Source of the DNA: Nitrosopumilaceae archaeon
GTDB taxonomy: Archaea; Thermoproteota; Nitrososphaeria; Nitrososphaerales; Nitrosopumilaceae
Direction: 5' to 3'
Assembly (NCBI GenBank): GCA_035631875.1
Contig: DASQHX010000010.1
Location: 248,708 to 280,707 of the forward strand
Length of the DNA: 32,000 nucleotides
Shown here: positions 76 to 11,642 of the stretch, piece by piece
Numbering within the stretch: position 1 is the stretch's first letter
Layout of the letters: every line of letters begins with the position of its first letter
The notes under the pieces: generated by a model
Database searches by the model: none
What the model was told of the DNA's origin: nothing
Seen by the model: only the letters and a program-made list of their open reading frames with translations
Position numbers and translations under genes: made by a program

Positions 76-1596
76 ATGACAATAGGAGTTGTAATAGGAG
101 AATCAAAGCCAACTGAGGTTACCGCACAGTCATCTAAACCACTTGCAGTAGGAGAATATGTTATCATTGATTCACAAAATGGAAAGCTACTCGGATTAGT
201 AGAAAGATCAATTGTTTCAAGTGATGCACTCACAGATGTACGAAACTTTGACGAAGCTATAGAAAGCAAAGAGGTAGCATCTCTTAATTCTCGCGATAAA
301 AACTATAAAGTAAAAATAGGAATTCTTGGATTTTTAGACAAGTTACAAAAAGGACAAGCTGTTTTACCTGCAATTCCTCCATTACCAGGATCTTCAATAC
401 TTGATGCAACCGAAAATGATTTGGGAATAATATTTGCCCCAAAGGAAAATGAATGGATTAGAATAGGTGCACTTCTTAGAAATTCGGAAACTGAAGCCAA
501 AGTAAACCTGAACAAAATTGTCTCAAGACACATAGGCATACTTGCTATGACGGGTATGGGAAAAAGTAACCTAGTATCGCTCATCGCAAAACAGATAGCA
601 ACTCTTCAAGGGACACTAATAATTTTTGATTATCACAATGATTATGAAAATCTCAATCTGCCAAAAATCAACATAATGACAGCTAAAATAAATCCAAGAT
701 TATTACAAGCAGACAAGCTTGCTGAAGTAATAGAGATTAGAGAAAATGCAGACAAGCAACAACGAGCATTACGCGAGGCATTTACTGATTCGGTCAAACA
801 GGCAAAAGATTTCTGGACAGCACTAGAAGACAGCGTTTCATCATTTGGACATACAACAAAAGGATATGCAGATAGTGCAAGTAGAGTTCTTGACAAGATT
901 GATGATGCAAAACATAGATTTTCTGATATTTTAGATCCAGATTGTGGAGATCCTGTTGATTTGATAAAAGATGGAAGAGTTAACATTCTAAGTGTTGCGG
1001 AGCTAAGTGAAAGACAGGCAAATGCAGGTCTAGCATACTATTTGCAAGAGTTGCTAACAGATAGAAAAGACGCATGCTGGGCAAAAAGAGGAAAGGAATC
1101 TTCAAGAAAGAATAATAAATTTTCTGCCCCTATTTTTGTAATAATTGAAGAAGCACATGTTTTTATTCCAAAAGGAGAGCACACTGACACAAAATATTGG
1201 GCATCCAAAGTTGCAAGAGAAGGAAGAAAGTTTGGAATTGGACTGGGTATTGTATCTCAAAGACCTAGAAATATTGATCCAAATGTACTAAGCCAGATGG
1301 GTTCTCTTGCCATAATGAAAATTGTACAAGATGATGATCAACAACAAATTGCCTCAGCTGCAGAATCACTCAGCAAGGATCTGCTTTCTCAGTTACCGTC
1401 TTTGAACATAGGTGATGCTGTTCTCATAGGACAATGGGTCAATCTACCAGCAATTGTACACATAGATGAAGTAAAAGGAAAGACGGCGGGTTCCGATTTA
1501 AATGCAGTATCAGAATGGTCAGAATCTATAAAGTTCAAAGAAATTGGCATTGAGTCAACAAGGGGACTAATCCAAAAAGATCTATTGATGGACTAA
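76..1596 (+). CDS. herA: HerA-type FtsK/HerA-superfamily ATPase (DNA translocase/helicase of the archaeal double-strand-break end-resection operon)
   Basis: 506-aa ORF with ATG at 76, preceded by GAGAGGTG. Walker A 'MTGMGKSN' and Walker B-like 'IFVIIEEAHVFIP' are present. The stop overlaps the mre11 ATG (TAATG, 1594-1598). It sits directly upstream of mre11 and rad50. Confidence 0.85.
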   Translation: MTIGVVIGESKPTEVTAQSSKPLAVGEYVIIDSQNGKLLGLVERSIVSSDALTDVRNFDEAIESKEVASLNSRDKNYKVKIGILGFLDKLQKGQAVLPAIPPLPGSSILDATENDLGIIFAPKENEWIRIGALLRNSETEAKVNLNKIVSRHIGILAMTGMGKSNLVSLIAKQIATLQGTLIIFDYHNDYENLNLPKINIMTAKINPRLLQADKLAEVIEIRENADKQQRALREAFTDSVKQAKDFWTALEDSVSSFGHTTKGYADSASRVLDKIDDAKHRFSDILDPDCGDPVDLIKDGRVNILSVAELSERQANAGLAYYLQELLTDRKDACWAKRGKESSRKNNKFSAPIFVIIEEAHVFIPKGEHTDTKYWASKVAREGRKFGIGLGIVSQRPRNIDPNVLSQMGSLAIMKIVQDDDQQQIASAAESLSKDLLSQLPSLNIGDAVLIGQWVNLPAIVHIDEVKGKTAGSDLNAVSEWSESIKFKEIGIESTRGLIQKDLLMD

Positions 1597-2741
1597 TGAT
1601 TTTCTCTCATATCTCAGACACACATTTAGGATTTGTACAATATCATTCAGAGGAAAGAGAAGACGATGTATATTCTGCATTTAATCAAGCAATTGATATT
1701 TCAATAAATGATCATGTAGATTTTGTAATTTTTGCAGGAGATATATTTCATGTACCCACTCCCAGTGGAAAGGCGATATTGGTTTTAGCAAATGCATTAA
1801 AGCGTTTAAAACAAAATAATATTGATTCTTTTTTCATTCTTGGTGATCATGACATCAGTAGGATACGTGCAACACCAATCCCATTTGTTTATCATAATTT
1901 GGAATTTTCTAAATATATTGGAAATGGAAAACCGTTCCAATACAAAGACATCATGATTTTAGGATATGATAAACGAAGAAAAAATGAGATTCATACCTTT
2001 GAACAAGATTTTGTAATGGCTGATGCCGAAGCAAAGAATCACACAGGTCATAAAATTCTTGTATTACATCAAGGAATTACAGAGATCAACAAGTTTGCAG
2101 GAGAATTAAATTCTACAGATCTTCCAAAGAACTTTACCTATTATGGCATGGGACATCTTCACGAGAGGGAATTAAAAAAATTCAATCATTTAGGAGGTCC
2201 TATAGCATATCCAGGCTCCATAGAACTTACTTCAAGTGAAGGAATCAAGGAAACAGAGAAGGGGTTTTACGAAGTAGATATCTCGTCATCTGAAGCAAAA
2301 CCAAATTGGATAAGACTTGATACCAGACCTCAATATTCAGTTAGAACTAGTTTTGAAAACCTGACAAATGAAGTAAACAACTTGTCAGAAAAAATACAAT
2401 CATTTTCAAGAAAACCAATAGTTGAAATAAAAATTCATGGAAACAACATAGAGACTGACCTTGTCCAATCTCAAATTGCGAAACTAGTTCCTCTTACACT
2501 ACGATGTTTTTGGAAAACAATAATGTCAGAAGAAAATAATGGTTCAGTGTTTATTGACAAGCCTGCAAAAATTGATGATGAAATGTTAAAACTTGCAAAA
2601 GATATACTGAACTCTGAAAGTCTAGCAAATTTTGCAATTAATGATCTACTTCCACTTCTTTCAAAAAACCAGATTGACGATGCAAATCATTTGGTAATTG
2701 AAAACTTTAACCAATTCAAAAAGGGTGTGAAAAAATGTTAA
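1596..2741 (+). CDS. mre11: Mre11 DNA double-strand-break repair nuclease (calcineurin-like metallophosphoesterase)
   Basis: 381-aa ORF with phosphoesterase motifs 'SDTHLG', 'GDIFH', 'GDHD' and 'GHLH'. It overlaps herA by 1 nt and rad50 by 7 nt. Confidence 0.85.
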   Translation: MIFSHISDTHLGFVQYHSEEREDDVYSAFNQAIDISINDHVDFVIFAGDIFHVPTPSGKAILVLANALKRLKQNNIDSFFILGDHDISRIRATPIPFVYHNLEFSKYIGNGKPFQYKDIMILGYDKRRKNEIHTFEQDFVMADAEAKNHTGHKILVLHQGITEINKFAGELNSTDLPKNFTYYGMGHLHERELKKFNHLGGPIAYPGSIELTSSEGIKETEKGFYEVDISSSEAKPNWIRLDTRPQYSVRTSFENLTNEVNNLSEKIQSFSRKPIVEIKIHGNNIETDLVQSQIAKLVPLTLRCFWKTIMSEENNGSVFIDKPAKIDDEMLKLAKDILNSESLANFAINDLLPLLSKNQIDDANHLVIENFNQFKKGVKKC

Positions 2742-4813
2742 ACGAAATAGAGCTTGGTAATTTTCTTTCCCATTCTAATACAAAACTAGGATTTAACAAG
2801 GGTGTAACAGTCTTTGTCGGTCAGAATGGGGCAGGCAAATCAAGCATCATAGATGGAATAACATTTGCACTGTTTGGTCAGCATACTAGAAATTCTAACA
2901 AGGGGCTGGTTCGCCGAGGTGCAAATCAGGCGTATGCTAAGGTAAATTTCTCCATTTTAGATAGACAGTTTGAGGCAATACGCAAAATTGATTCAAAAGG
3001 AACAGTTTCCTCCCAGTTTTTTGAGAAAAAAAATGGCACTCTCATACCGCTTGCAGCAGGGGAAAGAAAACAGTTTGGCGAATCTATGACAAAGACAATC
3101 GAGTCTTTGATAGGAATGGATTTTGATAAGCTTAAGGTGGCATCAATTGTTCAACAAGGTGAACTTAATTCCATAATTAATGCAGACCCAAAAAAATTCA
3201 AGGAATTAGTGAATGCCATCATCGGAATTGATAAACTTGATACAGCATTTGAAATAATGAAATATGTTATAGAAAACTTTCGTGTTTCTATAAAAGAGAA
3301 ATTAGAATATGATGACAGGGATATTGAAAGTCTAAAAATTAAGATTGATCTTCTTACAAAAGAGATCAATCTAGCAAGGCCACAAAAAGAAGAGATGATC
3401 ACAAGGAAGAAAATGCAAGAAAATGAACTTGTTCAATTACAAAATAAGATAGATTCAGAATCTGCAAAAGAAATTAAGATAAAAGAATTAGAAACAAGAA
3501 AGTCTGAACTCATTCAATATGTAAAAACTGCAATCGCTTCTCTAAAAAAAGAAATACAGGAAAAAGAGAAAAAATTTTCCGACTGTGATGGATGTTTTAA
3601 CCACATATCATCTAAAAAAGAAACTGAGTCGCAACTAATAAAAATAGAAACAGAGTTAGAATCATCAAGAAAAGAGATTCAAGAATTTGTAGAAAAGATA
3701 GGCAAACTTGATGGCCAAGAAGAACTTGCAGGTAAGCTAAAACTACAAGATGGGAAATGTCCAGTCTGCGACTCCAAAGTAGAAACGCTCAACCCTCTTT
3801 TTGAAGAAGAACATCTTCGCAGTGAGATTACAAAAATACGAAATGAAATAGACTTGTTAACAAAACTAGAAAAAGAAAATCGTGAGAAAAAACACGTTCT
3901 TGAGCAAAATCTGCAAAAGGCTCTCAATGCGGAAAGAACACTCTCAATACATGGAATAAGACAGCCTCAAGAATTATCACATCTAAAAGAAGAAATATTT
4001 ATGTTAAAAAATAACATTCAAAAAATCCCATCAGAGTTGAATACATCCAAAAATCTGATACATTTAGCAATAGATCCTCATTCCGAAGCACTATGTAAAA
4101 CAATACTAACACTTCAAAAAGAAACAGATGGGTTTGATCTAATTGAATTTAAAAATCTAAAAATCTCTTTTGATCAAAAACGTAAATCACTTAGTACAAC
4201 TGAACAAGAAATCGGTGCATTAACACAAAAGATAGAGACTGCAGAAGTATACCAAGAAAAAATTTTCCAAGCATTAGAAGAACTTGTTTTAGTAAAAAAA
4301 TATGTTTTGCAATTAGAAGAAATTCGGGGTCATATTTTTAACAGGGACGGACCTGTTGCAACTAGTTTACGTTCATGGGCATTAAACCTGATATCGCAAA
4401 AAGCATCAGAATATTTGTCCGCATTTAACGTGAAGATTCAAAGAGTTTTGTTGCGGGAAAAGGCACGAGATGTGGGAATTTTATGTTATTCTGGAAATAC
4501 AGTTTTGGAACTTGATTCTCTAAGTGGCGGTGAAAAAGTTAGCATAGCATTAGCTCTGCGACTTGGAATGGCACACATTCTAGGTTCCTCTAATCTTAAT
4601 TTCATTATACTTGATGAACCAACTACACATTTAGATGAAGAGCGTAGAAAATCATTAGTAGGAATTCTTTCTAATGCGTTTGAAGCTAATCTAGCTGCAA
4701 TATCTCAGTTTATTATAATCACGCATGATTCTGAAATATTTGAAAACTCTAATGTTGATACAATATACAATTTTGAAGCTACTCCTGAAGGAACAAAAGT
4801 AATACCGTTCTAA
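2735..4813 (+). CDS. rad50: Rad50 SMC-like ATPase
   Basis: 692-aa ORF with Walker A 'GQNGAGKSS' and a long Lys/Glu-rich coiled-coil middle. It has a central zinc hook 'CPVC', ABC signature 'LSGGE', Walker B 'FIILDEPT' and 'ITHD'. Confidence 0.9.
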   Translation: MLNEIELGNFLSHSNTKLGFNKGVTVFVGQNGAGKSSIIDGITFALFGQHTRNSNKGLVRRGANQAYAKVNFSILDRQFEAIRKIDSKGTVSSQFFEKKNGTLIPLAAGERKQFGESMTKTIESLIGMDFDKLKVASIVQQGELNSIINADPKKFKELVNAIIGIDKLDTAFEIMKYVIENFRVSIKEKLEYDDRDIESLKIKIDLLTKEINLARPQKEEMITRKKMQENELVQLQNKIDSESAKEIKIKELETRKSELIQYVKTAIASLKKEIQEKEKKFSDCDGCFNHISSKKETESQLIKIETELESSRKEIQEFVEKIGKLDGQEELAGKLKLQDGKCPVCDSKVETLNPLFEEEHLRSEITKIRNEIDLLTKLEKENREKKHVLEQNLQKALNAERTLSIHGIRQPQELSHLKEEIFMLKNNIQKIPSELNTSKNLIHLAIDPHSEALCKTILTLQKETDGFDLIEFKNLKISFDQKRKSLSTTEQEIGALTQKIETAEVYQEKIFQALEELVLVKKYVLQLEEIRGHIFNRDGPVATSLRSWALNLISQKASEYLSAFNVKIQRVLLREKARDVGILCYSGNTVLELDSLSGGEKVSIALALRLGMAHILGSSNLNFIILDEPTTHLDEERRKSLVGILSNAFEANLAAISQFIIITHDSEIFENSNVDTIYNFEATPEGTKVIPF

Positions 4814-5473: not shown

Positions 5474-6241
5474 TTAAGTTAAAGCTACGCAGATGTTTTG
5501 TACTGTATGTGTCGCTATTGTTCCTGAATTAACTATCTTTCCACCACATAGGTTGAAAATGCTACCATCATTGGCAATTGTATTGCTGTTGGTAAGCAGA
5601 CCTTGGTTTGTGATGACGCCGCTGTTCATAACTGGGCCACTATTAGTAAAGGTGCCACTTGTCATGACCGTGCCGTGGTTAACCAGATTCAACGTATTGG
5701 TAAGTGTGCCACCATTGTTGATTAGCATACCAGTTTCTTTTACTAGTATGGTACCAGATGATGTGATTACACCGCTGCTAGTTATTTTACCGTCACTTTG
5801 TATAACACCTGTTGGACCGTTAGTTATTGTGCCAGATGAGGTGATAACGCCAAAGTTATTGAATGGACCACTGTTCGTTATTGTGCCGCCATTGCTAGCA
5901 ATGATACCGTTATTGGTAACAATACCAGAGGTTGTCATGACGCCGCCGGTTGCGATGTTAATTGTTCCATCATTTGTGATGGTGCCGCTGCTAGTTACTG
6001 TTCCTATGTTGAAAACAACATTTGATGCTATAACTAGTGTGTCAGCAGGACCAATTACAAGAGTAGTGATTTTACATGTGGAAGTTGCGTTGTTCCACAC
6101 TCCACCTACTGATGGAGATTGGCATGATAGTAGATCAGATACTGTAAAGGTTTCTGCCATTGCATTTTGTGCAGAAATTCCTAGAACAGAAATCATCACT
6201 GCAAATACAGGAAGTACGAGTGTTTTTTTCATGTTTGTCAT
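5474..6241 (-). CDS. Secreted Thr/Gly/Asn-rich repeat protein (short paralog of the 7185-9077 protein)
   Basis: 255-aa ORF with signal peptide 'MTNMKKTLVLPVFAVMISVLGISAQNAMA'. A Cys-flanked entry segment 'CQSPSVGGVWNNATSTCKITTL...TLVIASNVV' is followed by dozens of degenerate G-x-(I/V)-T-N/S-x units. The C-terminus has a Cys pair 'CGGKIVNSGTIATHTVQNIC'. Signal peptide, entry segment and repeats are all homologous to the 630-aa neighbour. Confidence 0.8.
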   Translation of the reverse strand: MTNMKKTLVLPVFAVMISVLGISAQNAMAETFTVSDLLSCQSPSVGGVWNNATSTCKITTLVIGPADTLVIASNVVFNIGTVTSSGTITNDGTINIATGGVMTTSGIVTNNGIIASNGGTITNSGPFNNFGVITSSGTITNGPTGVIQSDGKITSSGVITSSGTILVKETGMLINNGGTLTNTLNLVNHGTVMTSGTFTNSGPVMNSGVITNQGLLTNSNTIANDGSIFNLCGGKIVNSGTIATHTVQNICVALT

Positions 6242-6264
6242 TATCAGTCTAATTGTTGATAATG

Positions 6265-6332
6265 CTAATAGGTCGCGCTAACATTTGTGTTAGTATCATG
6301 TACGTATGTGTAGTATCATGGACAAGTTTGTC
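6265..6332 (-). promoter_or_regulatory. Shared double-dyad + TATA module, copy 1 (upstream of secreted protein gene, start 6241)
   Basis: In gene orientation: GACAAACTTGTC (6321-6332), a 20-nt internal duplication (tagtatcatg at 6291-6300 and 6311-6320), CTAACACAAATGTTAG (6278-6293), GCGC, then CCTATTAG (6265-6272). 23 nt separate the box from the ATG. Confidence 0.6.
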
Positions 6333-6348
6333 AGTGTAATGTACTAGA

Positions 6349-6645
6349 TCAGATAATTTTTGAAATCATTGAGGCAAATTCTCGGCCACTTTTAGTCAAG
6401 ACAACATTAATTTTGTTATCTTTAATTTTTGATTCAACAAGACCAATTTTCTCCATCCAAACAATATGTTTTGCAAGTCTTGCATAGTTTACATTGGTAT
6501 CAAGTGATAGCTGGGTCTTGCCTTTAGAGCCGTTTTCTGTCATGACTTTCATGATACGCGACAAAGTTTTCATGCTTGGTTTAAAGTCAGTATCCAATTT
6601 TTTATTCTTTAAAATTTTGGTTATTTTTTTTATTTTTCTAGTCAA
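6349..6645 (-). CDS. Small winged-helix DNA-binding protein, family A paralog 1
   Basis: 98-aa ORF with TTG at 6645, lying 25 nt downstream of a TATA-like box. An alternative ATG is at 6573. The core 'PSMKTLSRIMKVMTENGSKGKTQLSLDTNVNYARLAKHIVWMEKIGLVESK...LTKSGREFA' has the helix-turn-helix + wing pattern. It is a close paralog of 9211-9525 and 10528-10833. Confidence 0.7.
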   Translation of the reverse strand: MTRKIKKITKILKNKKLDTDFKPSMKTLSRIMKVMTENGSKGKTQLSLDTNVNYARLAKHIVWMEKIGLVESKIKDNKINVVLTKSGREFASMISKII

Positions 6646-6670
6646 CAGTTTTATCTAATGATTAAAATGG

Positions 6671-6718
6671 CATTTAGGTCGCGCTAACATTTGTGTTAGT
6701 ATCATAGACAAGTTTGTC
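6671..6718 (-). promoter_or_regulatory. Shared double-dyad + TATA module, copy 2 (upstream of wHTH A1, start 6645)
   Basis: In gene orientation: GACAAACTTGTC (6707-6718), CTAACACAAATGTTAG (6684-6699), GCGC, then CCTAAATG (6671-6678). Dyad centres are 21 nt apart, and 25 nt separate the box from the TTG start. Confidence 0.6.
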
Positions 6719-6734
6719 GATGTTATGTACTAAA

Positions 6735-6881
6735 TCAGGTAATTTTTGAAATCATTGGCGCAAATTTTCTGCCATTTTCAGTCAAAGCAATTTTAATTTT
6801 GTTTTCTTTCATTGTTGATTCAACTTAATTCCTACTGTTTTAGAACATCATGGTACAGAACCTTGTTTTTGTACGGGACAA
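6735..6881 (-). pseudogene. Decayed family-A wHTH gene (3' end and 5' end retained, middle deleted)
   Basis: 6735-6824 translates on the minus strand to 'VESTMKENKIKIALTENGRKFAPMISKIT*', matching the C-terminus of the 9211-9525 paralog ('...ENKIKIALTASGRKFASMIS'). 6870-6883 (tgtacgggacaatc) is identical to 9514-9527, which spans that paralog's TTG start. The central ~200 nt encoding the HTH is absent. Confidence 0.55.
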
Positions 6882-6908
6882 TCACACATTAATTTATTTA
6901 TTTCTAAA

Positions 6909-7136
6909 ATGACAAAAATAATATCAATAGGAACAAATGTTTCAAGATTCATACCAAGGACTTAATACATAACAGGACAACGCTATATCCTGCCTAGAAA
7001 AGAATACAAAACAATTAGCGTAAAACTGAAAACTTTTATGAGATTTATCAAAGCTGTAAAAGATGCGCGCAAAAAAAATTCTGCCATGACTAATACTGAA
7101 TTCCTTGATTATCTTCTTGATCTTGGGTCTGCATGA
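6909..7136 (+). pseudogene. Possible small ribbon-helix-helix-like ORF interrupted by one in-frame TAA
   Basis: ATG at 6909, in-frame TAA at 6963-6965, then 56 further open codons to TGA at 7134-7136. That is unusually long for this AT-rich DNA. The second part, 'YKTISVKLKTFMRFIKAVKDARKKNSAMTNTEFLDYLLDLGSA', reads like a strand-helix-helix. No homolog was recognised, so this is weak. Confidence 0.25.
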
Positions 7137-7184
7137 TTTGCGTTAAATGAATACTACATTACAGAAACTATTCAAGTATTGTTT

Positions 7185-9077
7185 TTAAACAACTGGACAG
7201 GTATTTTTTATTGGATTACCTACAATTATCCCGCTAATAGAGCCACCACATGAATCTGTGATGCTACCAGAATTGGTGATCGGAGCGCTGTTGATGACTA
7301 GCGCAGAGTTGGTCATTATTCCGCTGTTAGTAATAGGACCGCTGTTAGTAATAGGACCGCTGTTAGTAACAGTACCAGAGGTAGTCAAGATACCAGAATT
7401 AGTGACAAGACCTGTTGCTGTGTTGACTATGACACCTGTAGCACTGTTGTCAATAGGACCGCTGCTTACAAGTGCACCAGAGTTGGTGATTGTACCACTG
7501 TTGATTATATTGAGACTGTTTGTAACTGTGCCTCCTAGTGCATTGGTTAGTTTACCAGAGGTTGGTAACGTGATGGCACCAGATGTGGTGATTATACCTG
7601 CATTGTTATTTGTTATAATGCCATTGTCTGTAATGACACCTGTTGGACCGTTGGTGAGTGTGCCACTATTTGTCATAGTGCCAGAGTTGGTTACAGGTCC
7701 GCTGTTGGTGATTGTGCCCAAGTTTGTTATTGTACCAGTAAGAGTGTTTGTGATAAGTCCACTGCTTGTAATAGTACCTGTTAGACCGTTTGTTACAGGA
7801 CCGTTATTTGTTATAGTACCAGATGATGTAATGGTTCCAGTGTTGCTAAATGTATTTGTTGTAGTTAAAATGCCAGTTGGACCAACTGTAATGGTACCAG
7901 TGTTGATTATAGGTCCGCTGTTGGTGATTGTACCCAAGTCTGTGATAAGTCCCGTGTTGCTAAGAACAACATTAGATGCAATAACTAGTGTGTTACCAGA
8001 ATTAATTGTCAATGTAGAGACTGTACATGTTGTAGTTGCAACAGTCCAAACTCCGCCTAATGTTTGACATGATGTTTGATCAGATAGTGTAATAATTCCT
8101 GGAGTAATTGTTGGTGGTGGTATCACGGCAACTACGTTGACAGTTCTAGTTACTTGAATTGCATGATTTCCTGCAGGGTCTACTGCGTTATAGGTTACCA
8201 AGTATGAACCTACTATACTCGTATTAACTGCACTTGAGTTTATTGTTGCAACTAGTCCGACATTGTCTGGATCAGATACAGTAGCACCCAACTCGGTATA
8301 GACGCCTCCGACTACAATAATTTGAGGATTAGCACCTATCAAAGTGATTACAGGTGGTGTGGTATCTGGTGGTGTGATAGCTGCTGGAGCTGTGATTATA
8401 GCAGAAGCTCCTGTAGTAACTGCACCGTTTGACAAGATTCTTCCATTCATAGTGACTAGTGTACCTACGGAAGTAGCTGCATTACTTAGTACATTTCCTA
8501 CGAAATGACTGTTTGCTCCAAGTGTTGTAGCTCCTACTGGTACCCAAAATACATTGCCAGCTAGTGCACCTCCGTGTAAGTGAATAGATGAGCCAGCTAC
8601 GGTATTAAGTGCGCCGCCCAGTCTGAAAATGTAAACTCCATTACCGTTAAGAGTAGCTACATCGTTTATTGAAACAGCACCCGTAATACAATAGACTCCT
8701 GGTGTTATGTCGCCGAGAGTGTCTAAGACAGTTGCTGGAGTAAGTGTTGTTGTACAAGCTCCAGTTTGTGTTGGATCGTTTGCGTTTGCAATGAGCTTGG
8801 CTTGAACTGTTTCTGCGTTAATATAAGTAGGATCGGTAGCTATGAAAGTTGTACCATGAACTATTGGAAGAGCTGCTGGTGGTACGGTATATCCAAGATC
8901 TCCGTTTATAGTAGTTCCTGCGCCTGCGGTAAATGTATTAGCAAGAAGAGCAAAGTTGCTGACACCTGTTAGGTCTAGTGGACCTGCTGCAGTGACACCT
9001 TGGATAGAAAAAAATATAACAGAAATCATGGCGACCACTATAGGAAGAATGAGAATTTTTTTCATTGTAGTTGCCAT
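7185..9077 (-). CDS. Large secreted multidomain surface protein: ice-binding-like (DUF3494) domain + Ig-like (DUF5011-type) domain + Thr/Gly/Asn repeat domain
   Basis: 630-aa ORF with signal peptide '[30 protein letters not shown]'. Residues ~30-230 follow the DUF3494 pattern ('SNFALLAN...TINGDLGY...PGVYCI...[12 protein letters not shown]...[25 protein letters not shown]...MNGRILS'). Residues ~238-315 follow the DUF5011 pattern ('[30 protein letters not shown]...[15 protein letters not shown]...RTVNV'). The C-terminal ~310 aa are homologous to the 255-aa neighbour. Confidence 0.85.
7321..7374. repeat. 18-bp tandem repeat inside the repeat domain (two perfect copies plus one diverged)
   Basis: ccgctgttagtaatagga occurs at 7321-7338 and 7339-7356, followed by ccgctgttagtaacagta at 7357-7374. 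On the minus strand this encodes the run '[15 protein letters not shown]'. Confidence 0.9.
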
Positions 9078-9100
9078 TAAGATTTTGATTGTTGATAATG

Positions 9101-9190
9101 CTATTAAGCCGCGCTTACATTTTTGTTAGTTTCATGTACTAGTTTGTCAGTATGATGTATTATTCTGTCAGCATTACTGACAAATCTGTC
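9101..9190 (-). promoter_or_regulatory. Shared double-dyad + TATA module, copy 3 (upstream of large secreted protein, start 9077), with an extra distal dyad
   Basis: In gene orientation: GACAGATTTGTC (9179-9190, within CTGACAGATTTGTCAG), a degenerate dyad (9137-9148), CTAACAAAAATGTAAG (9114-9129), GCGC, then CTTAATAG (9101-9108). 23 nt separate the box from the ATG. The leader 'gcattatcaacaat' is shared with copy 1. Confidence 0.6.
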
Positions 9191-9210
9191 AGTAATTATA
9201 AATTGAATTG

Positions 9211-9525
9211 TTATTTGGTAGTTGAGATCATTGACGCAAATTTTCTGCCACTTGCGGTCAAAGCAATTTTAATTTTGTTTTCTTCAATTGTTGATGCAAC
9301 AAGATCATTTTTCTCCATCCAAACAATATGTTTTGCAAGTCTTGCATAGTTTACATTGGTATCAAGTGATAGCTGGGTCTTGCCTTCAGAACCGTTTTCT
9401 GTCATGGATTTCATGATACGAGATAGAACTTTCATGCTTGGCTCAAAGTTAGGCTCTATTTTTTTGTTCTTGACAATCTCGATTATTTGAGAATTAATTA
9501 CCAACCTGGCATATGTACGGGACAA
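9211..9525 (-). CDS. Small winged-helix DNA-binding protein, family A paralog 2
   Basis: 104-aa ORF with TTG at 9525 and an alternative ATG at 9435. 'EPNFEPSMKVLSRIMKSMTENGSEGKTQLSLDTNVNYARLAKHIVWMEKNDLV' is near-identical to the paralogs over the HTH region. Confidence 0.7.
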   Translation of the reverse strand: MSRTYARLVINSQIIEIVKNKKIEPNFEPSMKVLSRIMKSMTENGSEGKTQLSLDTNVNYARLAKHIVWMEKNDLVASTIEENKIKIALTASGRKFASMISTTK

Positions 9526-9717
9526 TCCTATATAACTGGATCCTAAATACGATAAATAATATTAATAAAAAGAAATATCATTTCATAAAATGATTCTGAT
9601 TATCCTGATTAAAGAATTCTAGTGAGAAATGTTACTTACTCCTGCAGTGAGTGCATCTTATTAGTTGGTATGAGAGATGATGAATATTTTTAGAGTTTTC
9701 AATTTTTCTATCATGTT

Positions 9718-9765
9718 GACAGATTAGTCCATAAAACGGACAAAGATGTGAGTGTGGTTTAATAG
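9718..9765 (+). promoter_or_regulatory. Shared double-dyad + TATA module, copy 6 (degenerate; upstream of the DUF922-like gene)
   Basis: GACAGATTAGTC (9718-9729), GACAAAGATGTG (9739-9750, centres 21 nt apart), then TTTAATAG (9758-9765). 18 nt separate the box from the ATG at 9784. It lies in a divergent intergenic region, so it cannot be a terminator of an upstream gene. Confidence 0.5.
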
Positions 9766-9783
9766 CTCTACCGACCGTAAACT

Positions 9784-10374
9784 ATGGTTGATAAATGTAT
9801 GCAAATCTTCGTCAATAACACATCTACAAACCCAGAACTTCCGGTAATTATTTGGAATAAGACTCAAATCTTAAAATGGAATGATTTCAAAAAAAGATCT
9901 GATCCTAAAGCTAAAGCATCAGCTAGCTCAGCAATAGGATTCGAATCAAAGCCACTTATTGAGCATATTAAGACTGGAAGCAAATTCAAATTTAAGATTA
10001 GAGATATGCAACTCCAAGCAGTTTTTATCCCTGATTTCTCTTGGGTAATGAAAAAAAATAGTAAGAAAGGTAGTACATTGCTTCTAAAACACGAACAAGG
10101 GCATTTTGATCTGGCAGAAGAAATCACTAGAAAAACTAGAATTAGAACAACCAATCGTTTTCAGAATAGAGCCTTTATTGTAAAAGGTGCAAATGATGCC
10201 AAGGCAAAAAAAGATGCGATATTACAAGTAACTAAAATAAGAAAAGAAATCGATAGTAAATTACTAAAGGAACTCAAACGCCAACAAACAAAATATGATG
10301 ATAAAACTAATCACGGATTAATCACAGAGAATCAAGAGAAATACAACAAAAGATTCGAAAAGTTAAGAGAATGA
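9784..10374 (+). CDS. DUF922-like protein, putative Zn-dependent peptidase ('HEQGH' motif)
   Basis: 196-aa ORF. 'LKWNDFKKRSDPKAKASASSAIGF' and 'LLLKHEQGHFDLAEE' match my recollection of the DUF922 / COG5661 signature. The C-terminal third is Lys-rich and helical. No signal peptide is evident. Confidence 0.55.
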   Translation: MVDKCMQIFVNNTSTNPELPVIIWNKTQILKWNDFKKRSDPKAKASASSAIGFESKPLIEHIKTGSKFKFKIRDMQLQAVFIPDFSWVMKKNSKKGSTLLLKHEQGHFDLAEEITRKTRIRTTNRFQNRAFIVKGANDAKAKKDAILQVTKIRKEIDSKLLKELKRQQTKYDDKTNHGLITENQEKYNKRFEKLRE

Positions 10375-10525
10375 ATCAATTTTTTATTTTAATTTTTAAC
10401 AGACAAGCGAACGAGTTTATCAATAAGGAATAGTGCAAAACCATTGTCAACTTCTTTTTGTTATGGATCTTAGATTTTAGTGAAAATAATTTATATTAGA
10501 TTGTACCGCACAAATGTGGTACAAA

Positions 10526-10565
10526 GTATGGTAGAGTATGGTATGGTATGGTATGGTATGGTATC
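10526..10565. repeat. Pentanucleotide microsatellite (GTATG)n at the 5' end of a wHTH gene
   Basis: Unit order: gtatg (10526-30), gtaga, five perfect gtatg (10536-10560), gtatc. ATGs fall at 10528, 10538, 10543, 10548, 10553 and 10558, covering all three frames. Confidence 0.9.
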
Positions 10566-10833
10566 AAAAGACATTAAAGACATAAAATTAGAGCCTAACT
10601 TTGAGCCTAGCATGAAAACTTTAATGCGTATATTCAAAACCATGACAGAAAAAGGTCCTGAGGGAAAGACCATTTTATCACTTGATACCAATCTACAATA
10701 TAGCAGACTTGCAAAACATATTGTTTGGATGGAGAAAAAAGGTCTTGTTGAATCAAGAGTTGAAAAATCCAAGATTAATGTTGGTTTGACCGAGAAAGGC
10801 AGAATATTTGCATCAACGCTTTCAAATGACTAG
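10528..10833 (+). CDS. Small winged-helix DNA-binding protein, family A paralog 3
   Basis: The ORF is open from 10480 (GTG). In-frame ATGs lie at 10528, 10543, 10558 and 10612, and the true start is uncertain. 'LEPNFEPSMKTLMRIFKTMTEKGPEGKTILSLDTNLQYSRLAKHIVWMEKKGLVESR' is paralogous to 6349-6645 and 9211-9525. TATA-like tttatatta lies at 10490-10498, and a degenerate dyad CGCACAAATGTG at 10507-10518 sits between it and the first ATG. Confidence 0.7.
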   Translation: MVEYGMVWYGMVSKDIKDIKLEPNFEPSMKTLMRIFKTMTEKGPEGKTILSLDTNLQYSRLAKHIVWMEKKGLVESRVEKSKINVGLTEKGRIFASTLSND

Positions 10834-10852
10834 TAACAGACATCCACATACT

Positions 10853-10900
10853 GACAGATTTGTCCCTAAAATTGACACCAATGTCAGCGCGGCTTAAATC
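10853..10900 (+). promoter_or_regulatory. Shared double-dyad + TATA module, copy 4 (upstream of HTH_45-type gene, start 10924)
   Basis: GACAGATTTGTC (10853-10864), GACACCAATGTC (10874-10885), GCGC, then CTTAAATC (10893-10900). Dyad centres are 21 nt apart, and 23 nt separate the box from the ATG. Confidence 0.6.
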
Positions 10901-10923
10901 AAATAAAATATTCATTTATTTAT

Positions 10924-11202
10924 ATGATGCAAAACCGTAGCAAACCAGAAATTACTGCTATGATTTTAGAATCTGCAAGAACGGGGGCTACAAAAACAAA
11001 GATGATGTATAATGCGTATCTCTCTCATACTCAAGTACAGGAATATGTGAAATTTCTACAAAAAAGCGATCTATTAACATACGAGAACAATACAGAGCTT
11101 TACAGACCAACTGAAAAGGGATTGAAATTCTTGGATCTCTTATATGTGCTGGGTAAAATTGTTCCCTTGTCCAATTCAGAGAATTATAACATAGAATCCT
11201 AA
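10924..11202 (+). CDS. Small archaeal winged-helix protein, family B (PF14947/HTH_45-like), paralog 1
   Basis: 92-aa ORF. 'RSKPEITAMILESARTGATKTKMMYNAYLSHTQVQEYVKFLQKSDLL...YRPTEKGLKFL' matches the HTH_45 pattern (R-x-x-x-E-I...K-T-x-I-M-Y-x-A-x-L-S...Y-x-x-T-x-K-G-x-x-F-L). Confidence 0.75.
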   Translation: MMQNRSKPEITAMILESARTGATKTKMMYNAYLSHTQVQEYVKFLQKSDLLTYENNTELYRPTEKGLKFLDLLYVLGKIVPLSNSENYNIES

Positions 11203-11297
11203 ACCTAGAAATTGAATGCATGGAATTTCTAAACAACTGATCCAGATCATCTTTTTCATCTTTTACAAATCTTAAGTTTTCAATTCTACAACATGTA

Positions 11298-11345
11298 GAC
11301 AGATTTGTCCCTAATACTGACACCAATGTCAGCGCATCTTAAATC
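11298..11345 (+). promoter_or_regulatory. Shared double-dyad + TATA module, copy 5 (upstream of HTH_45-type gene, start 11367)
   Basis: GACAGATTTGTC (11298-11309), CTGACACCAATGTCAG (11317-11332, perfect 6-nt arms), GCGC, then CTTAAATC (11338-11345). Dyad centres are 21 nt apart, and 21 nt separate the box from the GTG. Confidence 0.6.
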
Positions 11346-11366
11346 ATAAAGAAGATTCTTCTATGT

Positions 11367-11642
11367 GTGGTACTATACCGTGGTAGAACTGAAATTCTCA
11401 ATGAGATGCTAGAGGCTGCAAAAAGAGGTGCAGGAAAGACAAGGATAATGTACAAGGCAAGTCTCTCTTACAGTCAACTCACGGGATATCTGTATTATTT
11501 ACAGCAAAATGGTTTGATAACACATGAAAAAGATACACTGGTTTACAGATCAACTAAAAAGGGATTGAAATTCTTGAACCTGTCGAATGATTTGAGTAAA
11601 TTGGCACGAACACAAACTCAACCAGTCCCACAAATACGCTAA
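11367..11642 (+). CDS. Small archaeal winged-helix protein, family B (PF14947/HTH_45-like), paralog 2
   Basis: 91-aa ORF with a GTG start. 'RGRTEILNEMLEAAKRGAGKTRIMYKASLSYSQLTGYLYYLQQNGLI...YRSTKKGLKFL' aligns end to end with 10924-11202. Confidence 0.75.
   Translation: MVLYRGRTEILNEMLEAAKRGAGKTRIMYKASLSYSQLTGYLYYLQQNGLITHEKDTLVYRSTKKGLKFLNLSNDLSKLARTQTQPVPQIR

Follow-up and report, generated by a model that had tools for sequence, protein, structure and literature searches.

A phased 21-bp box module at promoters of Nitrosopumilales, linked to small HTH_45 winged-helix genes and to a probable surface-protein regulon

The stretch of Nitrosopumilaceae DNA analyzed here (32 kb of contig DASQHX010000010.1, referred to below as the window) contains six copies of a promoter module, each upstream of one start codon, in a gene cluster that also encodes five small winged helix-turn-helix (wHTH) proteins of the HTH_45 type. 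These fall into family A (A1, A2, and A3, besides a remnant, A0) and family B (B1 and B2). The module is a tandem array of 21-nucleotide (nt) units followed by a G+C-rich element, a TATA-like octamer, and a start codon at a nearly constant distance; it recurs in other genomes of the order Nitrosopumilales, commonly just past the stop codon of a family-A gene and ahead of a recurrent set of target genes. We read it, with a probability of roughly 0.7, as a lineage-specific regulated promoter in which an activator-type phased array for HTH_45 dimers precedes an element at the position of the TFB-recognition element (BRE), the octamer, and a leaderless start.

Six copies of the module in the window

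The first-pass annotation of this DNA had proposed that one promoter module is shared by six start codons, and we verified the sequence and coordinates of every copy. A position weight matrix built on 96 modules from other genomes, with the window left out, returned exactly those six sites in the 32 kb and no others: 6265-6293(-), 6671-6699(-), 9101-9129(-), 9737-9765(+), 10872-10900(+), and 11317-11345(+). They scored 25 to 45 bits, while the best score in 30 shuffles was 10.5. Likewise, GACA-N4-TGTC occurs seven times in the window, always within 6321-11330; 0.48 occurrences are expected by chance, and none of 100 shuffles reached seven.

In gene orientation the six upstream regions form a gap-free alignment. 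The module had been described as a double dyad, and its boxes are indeed real and phased, but they turn out to be members of a tandem array of 21-nt units, two to four per module in the window. Each unit starts with (C/T)T(G/A)ACA and has TGT ten nt further on, which gives the core ACA-N4-TGT. The last unit leads into GCGCG(G/A) and then the octamer (CTTAATAG, CTTAAATC, CCTAAATG, CCTATTAG, or TTTAATAG), which precedes the start by 23, 25, 23, 18, 23, and 21 nt in modules 1 to 6, respectively. There are two units at the A1, DUF922-like, B1, and B2 promoters, three at the gene for a 255-amino-acid (aa) secreted protein (the middle one degenerate and 20 nt long), and four at the gene for a 630-aa secreted protein (9192 to 9109). 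Independently of the matrix, Tandem Repeats Finder reported a period of 21 at 9122-9171.

Modules 1 to 3 lie on the minus strand. Module 1 (6265-6335) has its three units, GCGCGA, and octamer CCTATTAG ahead of the ATG of the 255-aa protein 23 nt on, and scored 31.7 bits for the last unit plus octamer. Module 2 (6671-6720), upstream of A1, has two units, GCGCGA, and octamer CCTAAATG (28.7 bits, or 47.7 bits for two units plus octamer). Module 3 (9101-9192) serves the 630-aa gene, whose ATG is 23 nt past octamer CTTAATAG (9108-9101); its four units occupy 9192-9172, 9171-9151, 9150-9130, and 9129-9109, and it scored highest (44.5 bits, or 81.7 bits with the full 71-nt model). The other three are on the plus strand. 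Module 4 (9716-9765), which separates the divergent A2 and DUF922-like genes, consists of two more diverged units with AGTG in place of AGCG, octamer TTTAATAG, and an ATG 18 nt on (25.2 bits, or 43.8 bits with both units and the octamer). Module 5 (10851-10900) begins about 18 nt past the A3 stop codon and combines two units, GCGCGG, and octamer CTTAAATC with the ATG of B1 23 nt on (36.3 bits; 62.2 bits for two units plus octamer). Module 6 (11296-11345), ahead of B2, has two units, GCGCAT, the same octamer CTTAAATC, and a GTG 21 nt on (33.3 and 49.1 bits).

Four of the six modules stand directly 3' of a family-A gene or remnant: A0 leads to the A1 promoter, A1 to the 255-aa gene, A2 to the 630-aa gene, and A3 to B1. 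The segment made up of an A-gene 3' end and its module is duplicated inside the window, with 83-85% identity in coding sequence and module alike. The similarity of the modules, especially 1 to 3, is therefore partly due to segmental duplication. Recent duplication as the sole source was rejected because of the contrast between B1 and B2, whose modules are identical at 44 of 50 positions (88%), whereas the genes share 66% of their nucleotides and 39% of their amino acids and the flanks 55-61%. This points to constraint on the module beyond that on neighboring DNA. The same conclusion follows from conservation across genera amid randomized flanks and from the occurrence of modules ahead of non-homologous genes.

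Distribution, geometry, and targets in Nitrosopumilales

A 37-nt degenerate pattern comprising one upstream box, the last box, and the octamer (about 35 bits, with 14 positions fixed) was scanned over 185,579 species genomes across GTDB. It was found in 85 stretches, of which 72 belonged to Nitrosopumilales and 13 were bacterial singletons, about the number expected by chance. The archaeal stretches came from Nitrosotenuis, Nitrosarchaeum, Nitrosotalea, and metagenome-assembled genomes (MAGs) of Nitrosopumilaceae, often several per genome; on the complete chromosome of Nitrosotenuis chungbukensis alone, seven strict copies are distributed among four regions over a distance of ~660 kb. In 2.9 million viral contigs the pattern found no match. 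Applied to 8-kb stretches of the other loci, the matrix revealed 30 additional, more diverged copies, with a start at the expected distance in 24 of 29; in bacterial control DNA it gave one match in 175 kb. The modules and A genes counted here and below include related sequences and are not phylogenetically independent. Loci with family-A homologues were present in Nitrosopumilus koreensis, Nitrosopumilus sp. S4, Nitrosotenuis sp. DW1, and one ENA contig. In each of them the A gene precedes a module, behind which stands a gene for a 252-aa secreted orthologue, an Ice_binding protein, an fn3 protein, or another HTH_45 protein. The earlier idea of a compact regulon confined to the 6-kb cluster does not hold, as the module is found order-wide and at multiple loci. 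In marine Nitrosopumilus the module takes a distinct form, or "dialect" (containing TGTACATCAAACCAACATTCATGTCAGCGTGAGTTAATAC), which always comes after an A gene and ahead of the orthologous 252-aa secreted repeat protein (L001, 6343-6405; L007, 8514-8576; L008, 5441-5503; L094, ~4351; L035; and L086).

The relation to the start codon is strict. In 74 of 98 archaeal modules, the start of an open reading frame (ORF) of 30 aa or more lies 19-30 nt past the pattern; for random positions in these loci the share is 15.5%. The most common distance is exactly 25 nt, and ATG is the usual start codon; starts around the bacterial matches are scattered. In loci drawn without the module pattern, a start stands at the expected distance in 76 of 119 modules. 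The fixed orientation and start distance bear out the annotation's view of the module as a promoter or operator rather than a terminator or generic repeat: the enrichment at start codons extends to related genomes.

Counted from the start codon, the octamer of most modules lies at -30 to -23. Since the archaeal TATA box lies at about -26/-27 from the transcription start (PMC5512572), the octamer would occupy the TATA position if transcription begins at the start codon, and the mRNAs are predicted to be leaderless, as had been suggested; the prediction rests on the distance from TATA to start codon. If the start codon is taken as the transcription start, the box centers fall at about -43.5, -64.5, and -85.5, wholly upstream of BRE and TATA. 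Several short boxes between about -40 and -90, just upstream of BRE/TATA, are also the arrangement of ArnR- and EarA-type promoters. The BRE position itself reads AGCG(Y)GG(C) and is G+C-rich, not purine- or A-rich as in the canonical archaeal core promoter.

A logo of 99 unique modules shows cTgAcAaATttGTccATaATA for unit 1, CTGACAaAttTGTa.ATgAAA for unit 2, and Ct.ACACAAATGTaAGCGCGG for unit 3, followed by CTTAATAg. Conservation is also evident where the search pattern imposes none, namely, in the CTGACA of unit 2, in a weaker unit 1 exactly 21 nt upstream, and in GGC at -32 to -30 (G 65%, G 67%, C 84%). It drops below 0.1 bit upstream of -95 and is weak (about 0.1-0.6 bit) from -22 to -1.

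The genes behind the modules were compared in two samples, the pattern-found modules and the modules at loci drawn by family-A similarity. Members of a superfamily of secreted Ice_binding-like or repeat proteins made up 54 of 98 targets in the former and 29 of 76 in the latter; DUF922-like genes accounted for 5 and 9, and HTH_45 genes for 9 and 9. Mini cysteine-rich ORFs and other signal-peptide proteins were further targets in both. Orthologues of the 255-aa protein, 252-253 aa long, stand behind modules in N. koreensis, Nitrosotenuis DW1, Nitrosopumilus S4, and others. The A1 subtype of family A (N terminus ...DFKPSM) is itself module-driven in several genera, with homologues behind modules at L005 (583), L026, and L060. 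The module-driven mini-ORFs are 30-46 aa long, with paired cysteines and a zinc-ribbon-like appearance; they are unannotated and have no Pfam match (L065, ~1643(-); L036, 1356; L053, 2863; and L105, L106, and L122, with MTQQMQQHEHRWVVTSDHHWKCITCGKTFG). In Nitrosotalea MAGs, module-like promoters were seen ahead of genes for Usp, Dps/ferritin-like, and 2x[4Fe-4S] ferredoxin proteins (L013(-), L085(-), and L066(+)), and the regulon in that genus may include stress genes.

Winged-helix families, candidate mechanism, and rival explanations

All five small proteins of the window score above the gathering threshold of 25.5 bits for Pfam HTH_45 (ArnR1-like winged helix), and BLASTP of family A against family B found no similarity. 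Proteins of both families are 74-105 aa long, those of the window 91-105 aa, and consist of a single wHTH domain with no HAMP, sensor, or transmembrane part, so they are not one-component regulators of the ArnR/ArnR1 type. B1 resembles Sso10a, as judged from matches to PDB entries 1r7j (E 3.4e-7) and 4hw0 (E 0.05). Family A matched no PDB sequence. An AlphaFold model of family A (predicted local distance difference test score of 78) gave generic matches to wHTH proteins of the MarR, ArsR, and AF1382 types only, with E values of at least 0.01 and no finer class. The predicted model of A2 consists of a wHTH with two short extra helices, one N-terminal and one C-terminal.

To gauge linkage from the side of the regulator, 80 metagenome loci drawn by A-protein similarity alone were reduced to 68 non-redundant A genes with enough downstream sequence. 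A co-oriented module lies just past the stop codon in 57 of the 68 (84%), compared to none on the opposite strand. The connection between the module and the co-located wHTH genes, raised in the first-pass annotation, is thus strong for family A. Distances from the A stop codon to the last box cluster at 20-25, 40-46, 62-66, and 84-92 nt; because they rise in steps of 21 nt, the first box begins at the A stop codon and the arrays hold about two to five boxes. Conversely, when modules collected with the pattern are the starting point, the first box coincides with the end of an A-family ORF or fragment in 28 of 96. Given this near-obligatory linkage, which is an association and not proof, family A is the leading candidate and most likely the binder of the boxes.

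Many A genes have a different box in their own promoter, placed between their TATA-like element and the start. This box, TTGTCCCGTACA, is present at A2 (9514-9525(-), between TATA-like TTATATAGG and the likely start, TTG 9504) and at the A0 remnant, and A3 has the variant TTGTACCGCACA (10501-10512(+)), placed between TTTATATTAG, which it directly follows, and the A3 start. The pattern TGTNCCGNACA is matched exactly in 11 of 42 A genes, and several more have near-variants; the box also occurs at L005 (~3180 and ~4960), L010, L044, L050, L064, L083, and L089. What had been noticed at A3 as a degenerate dyad in a repressor-like position is real and forms part of this conserved box. Its location is the classical archaeal repressor position, which suggests autoregulation of A genes.

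The mechanism we favor is as follows. Small HTH_45 dimers, most likely of family A, would occupy the phased boxes cooperatively and along a single face of the helix, as the 21-bp units (core CTGACA-N4-TGT(C/A)) are two helical turns apart. The bound protein would aid assembly of TBP and TFB on a non-canonical core promoter made up of the conserved AGCG(Y)GG at the BRE position and the octamer CTTAATAG, with the start codon at the predicted initiation site. This would switch on secreted surface proteins, the HExxH protein with similarity to DUF922, and additional regulators of the HTH_45 type, namely, family B and one subtype of A, while most A genes would be autoregulated from promoters of their own. 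Activation through TFB/TBP recruitment is favored by analogy with ArnR/ArnR1 and EarA. Several considerations weigh against this account. Just 2-3 bp separate the end of the last box from the BRE position, and a bound dimer could occlude TFB and repress. The recognition helix of family A (NYARLAKHIVW) is nearly invariant, although the flanks of the boxes differ between genera; the many A paralogues of a genome would therefore see the same boxes, which leaves unexplained why a target should have an A gene of its own. Since only ~30% of modules abut an A gene, a family-B or unlinked protein could be the binder. Finally, conservation at the 14 positions fixed by the search pattern is not independent evidence.

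It is possible, though in our estimate unlikely, that the same boxes are operators of a cooperative repressor, from family A or the Sso10a-like family B, which coats the DNA up to the BRE and keeps surface genes silent. The array reaches to about -38, where its last box abuts AGCG(Y)GG; Sso10a-type proteins can be architectural or coating DNA binders (PMC4941522); and the TTGTCCCGTACA box in A promoters, being in a clear repressor position, indicates that A or B proteins may repress. However, all three box centers are upstream of TATA, where activators such as ArnR, EarA, and Ptr2 typically bind (PMC6396743, PMC5512572), and the non-purine BRE position resembles a weak core promoter that needs help. 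We regard as improbable a reading in which the boxes are secondary and the AGCG(Y)GG-CTTAATAG core is a special BRE/TATA for one TFB or TBP paralogue, analogous to the use of an alternative sigma factor. The BRE-position element is conserved and atypically G+C-rich, and TFB genes are found near modules at L002, L007, and L048; the neighbors at L002 and L007 in particular had hinted at a dedicated paralogue. Yet TFB genes are not enriched, as three loci per 542 kb of module-bearing DNA is about the background if a 1.6-Mb genome has 8-10 of them, as we estimate, and the window ORFs scanned include none. Nor does such a core account for the 21-bp phasing of the boxes, their variable number, or their fusion to the ends of A genes.

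Still less probable is that the dyads act in RNA, as 3' hairpins (terminator, stabilizer, or processing site) of the upstream A transcript. Most A genes end at the array, hairpins of 4-10 bp can be folded from its palindromes (fold z-scores of -1.3 to -2.4), and the two arm versions in the window, CTGACA/TGTCAG and CTAACA/TGTTAG, differ by complementary changes, which had been taken as preserving dyad symmetry. These paired changes are real in the window but not general. Across the 99 modules only the ACA-N4-TGT core is symmetric; arm positions 1-3 and 14-16 are complementary no more often than column composition predicts, and for positions 3 and 14 of the last box the figure is 23% against 27% expected, with A/C, G/A, and T/A as common pairs. 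The change in the window is therefore no evidence of selection for symmetry and, with the z-scores modest and no Rfam match for the module, the case for a hairpin falls. Moreover, ~70% of modules have no upstream A gene, and 21-nt phasing with a fixed distance to the next start has no rationale in RNA. We find it scarcely credible that the module is a mobile or recombinogenic repeat (a miniature inverted-repeat transposable element, cassette recombination site, or iteron-like origin) that spread with cassettes and has no regulatory role. Its location at cassette boundaries, the duplicated A-gene segments of the window, and the high copy number per genome would fit such an origin. We rejected it on account of strict orientation and spacing from the start, with no reverse-strand site in any of the 68 regions downstream of A genes, and of the lack of matches in the viral contigs scanned; position-specific conservation amid randomized flanks, ahead of non-homologous genes, argues in the same direction, and no integrase or transposase was found among the window ORFs scanned.

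Going beyond the regulated promoter that we favor, one can imagine that an A gene, its box array, and a leaderless target form a self-contained, duplicable switch in which bound protein ends or roadblocks its own transcript and fires the downstream promoter. We consider this speculative and hold it to be doubtful. If true, each surface-protein gene would have private feedback on/off control, and multiplied cassettes could give ammonia-oxidizing archaea variable, possibly mutually exclusive, secreted or adhesin-like proteins; a 5-nt microsatellite in A3, described below, would be one route to stochastic switching.

Genes of the cluster and comparison with known systems

On the minus strand of the cluster, the 255-aa target (5474-6241) has a signal peptide, a weak Fil_haemagg match, and 6-residue repeats in common with the 630-aa target (7185-9077), which has its repeats at the C terminus and matches Ice_binding-like PF11999 (1e-23) and Ig-like PF16403 (1e-11). 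A1 (6349-6645), of the "DFKPSM" subtype, starts with TTG 25 nt past its octamer and scores 30.1 bits against Pfam HTH_45. The remnant A0 (6745-6881) has an internal deletion: its 3' end (6745-6824) and its 5' end with the TTGTCCCGTACA box (6870-6881) are kept, the middle is gone, and the module downstream of it is still in place ahead of A1. A2 (9211-9525; 30.7 bits), with TTG 9504 as its likely start, has an N terminus conserved in alignments and is 100% identical to database protein P0003. On the plus strand, the DUF922-like target (9784-10374; 196 aa) contains HEQGH, an HExxH motif, and matches Pfam DUF922 with an E value of 1.9e-4, which is under the curated cut-off. It is followed by A3 (10516-10833; start at GTG 10516 or ATG 10528; 29.2 bits), the Sso10a-like B1 (10924-11202; 65.0 bits), and B2 (11367-11642; 68.4 bits). 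Tandem Repeats Finder also detected a (GTATG)x7.8 microsatellite (10526-10564) at the extreme 5' end of the A3 frame (MVEYGMVWYGMV...). Adding or losing one repeat unit would alter the reading frame, and A3 could conceivably be switched on and off by strand slippage.

The cluster is flanked by HerA, Mre11, Rad50, and HEAT genes on one side and by TatC/PurP-type core genes on the other. At 76-4813(+), tandem genes encode a HerA-like helicase, an Mre11-like phosphoesterase, and an SMC/Rad50-like ATPase, the last recognized by eye from its translation (Walker A motif and coiled coil); a HEAT-repeat gene comes next, on the other strand. A HEAT gene matching the one in the window lies 5 kb from an A gene at L008. 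A 32-aa ORF (7038-7136(+); MRFIKAVKDARKKNSAMTNTEFLDYLLDLGSA), whose product looks like a ribbon-helix-helix mini-protein, is located between the 630-aa gene and the promoter of A0 but runs on the other strand; the frame of this ORF is open further upstream (KTISVKLKTF...). Two P/L/V-rich ORFs of 262 and 269 aa, at 5493-6281(+) and 7258-8067(+), face the secreted-protein genes and are most likely artifacts of repeats with an 18-nt (6-codon) period, one of which, at 7321-7369, is a perfect 18-nt x 2.7 repeat.

Ammonia-oxidizing archaea are among the most abundant microbes of ocean and soil, and we know of no routine genetic system for them. Our literature search retrieved no Nitrosopumilus promoter motif, transcription-start map, or HTH_45 regulon, and no regulon for ammonia-oxidizing archaea; nor did it retrieve a description of the present element and its order-wide conservation, of a 21-bp pitch with variable box number, of a regulator stop codon fused to the first box, or of cassette multiplication. 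An HTH_45 gene is among the genes strongly differentiated between Atlantic and Pacific populations (PMC9239043). A sharply defined cis-element with a candidate regulator family, a conserved target set, and exact predictions of transcription starts makes the regulon directly testable.

Known archaeal systems come close enough that the annotation's statement that no described system has this layout was too strong. ArnR and ArnR1 are HTH_45-type regulators of the Sulfolobus acidocaldarius flaB (archaellum) promoter, where two inverted repeats, TCGAC-N5-GTCGA, are both required between -43 and -84 (PMC6396743). They share with the present system the HTH_45 winged helix, boxes in the same stretch upstream of BRE/TATA, and cell-surface targets. 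They differ in being large, membrane-anchored one-component proteins with a HAMP domain, a sensor, and two transmembrane segments, whereas the proteins here are small single-domain wHTHs. The half-site and spacing (GACA-N4-TGTC), the two to five boxes at a strict 21-bp pitch, and the fusion of a regulator gene to the array also set the present system apart, and no archaellum or pilus operon is involved. EarA, described as homologous to ArnR (PMC6396743), acts at fla promoters of Methanococcus maripaludis and Pyrococcus through four TACATA boxes just upstream of a weak BRE; TFB recruitment has been proposed, and BRE mutation bypasses the activator (PMC5512572). Its promoter layout, with several short boxes ahead of a weak BRE, is similar to that found here, and GTACAT/TACATA strings recur in the units. 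EarA controls a single fla operon, in contrast to the multi-locus secreted-protein regulon seen here, and no 21-bp phasing or dyad core has been described for it.

Family B invites comparison with Sso10a (Sul10a) of Sulfolobales, which is likewise of the HTH_45 type and is portrayed as an abundant architectural or chromatin protein with no defined operator (PMC4941522); B1 and B2 differ in being module-driven themselves. Taken together, this is a kind of system already known, a regulated archaeal promoter at which a wHTH factor controls surface proteins through upstream boxes. Dimers on phased imperfect palindromes upstream of BRE/TATA, recruiting TBP, are also characteristic of Ptr2/Lrp-type activators and Ss-LrpB-type arrays. 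Those belong to the Lrp/AsnC family, with a ligand-binding RAM domain, and are not fused to target promoters in multiplied cassettes. The present module would bring a third major archaeal lineage into the ArnR/EarA pattern, in which HTH_45 regulators act on surface genes through boxes ahead of a weak BRE. The arrangement is unusual, with the regulator gene fused to a box array of variable length and repeated many times per genome.

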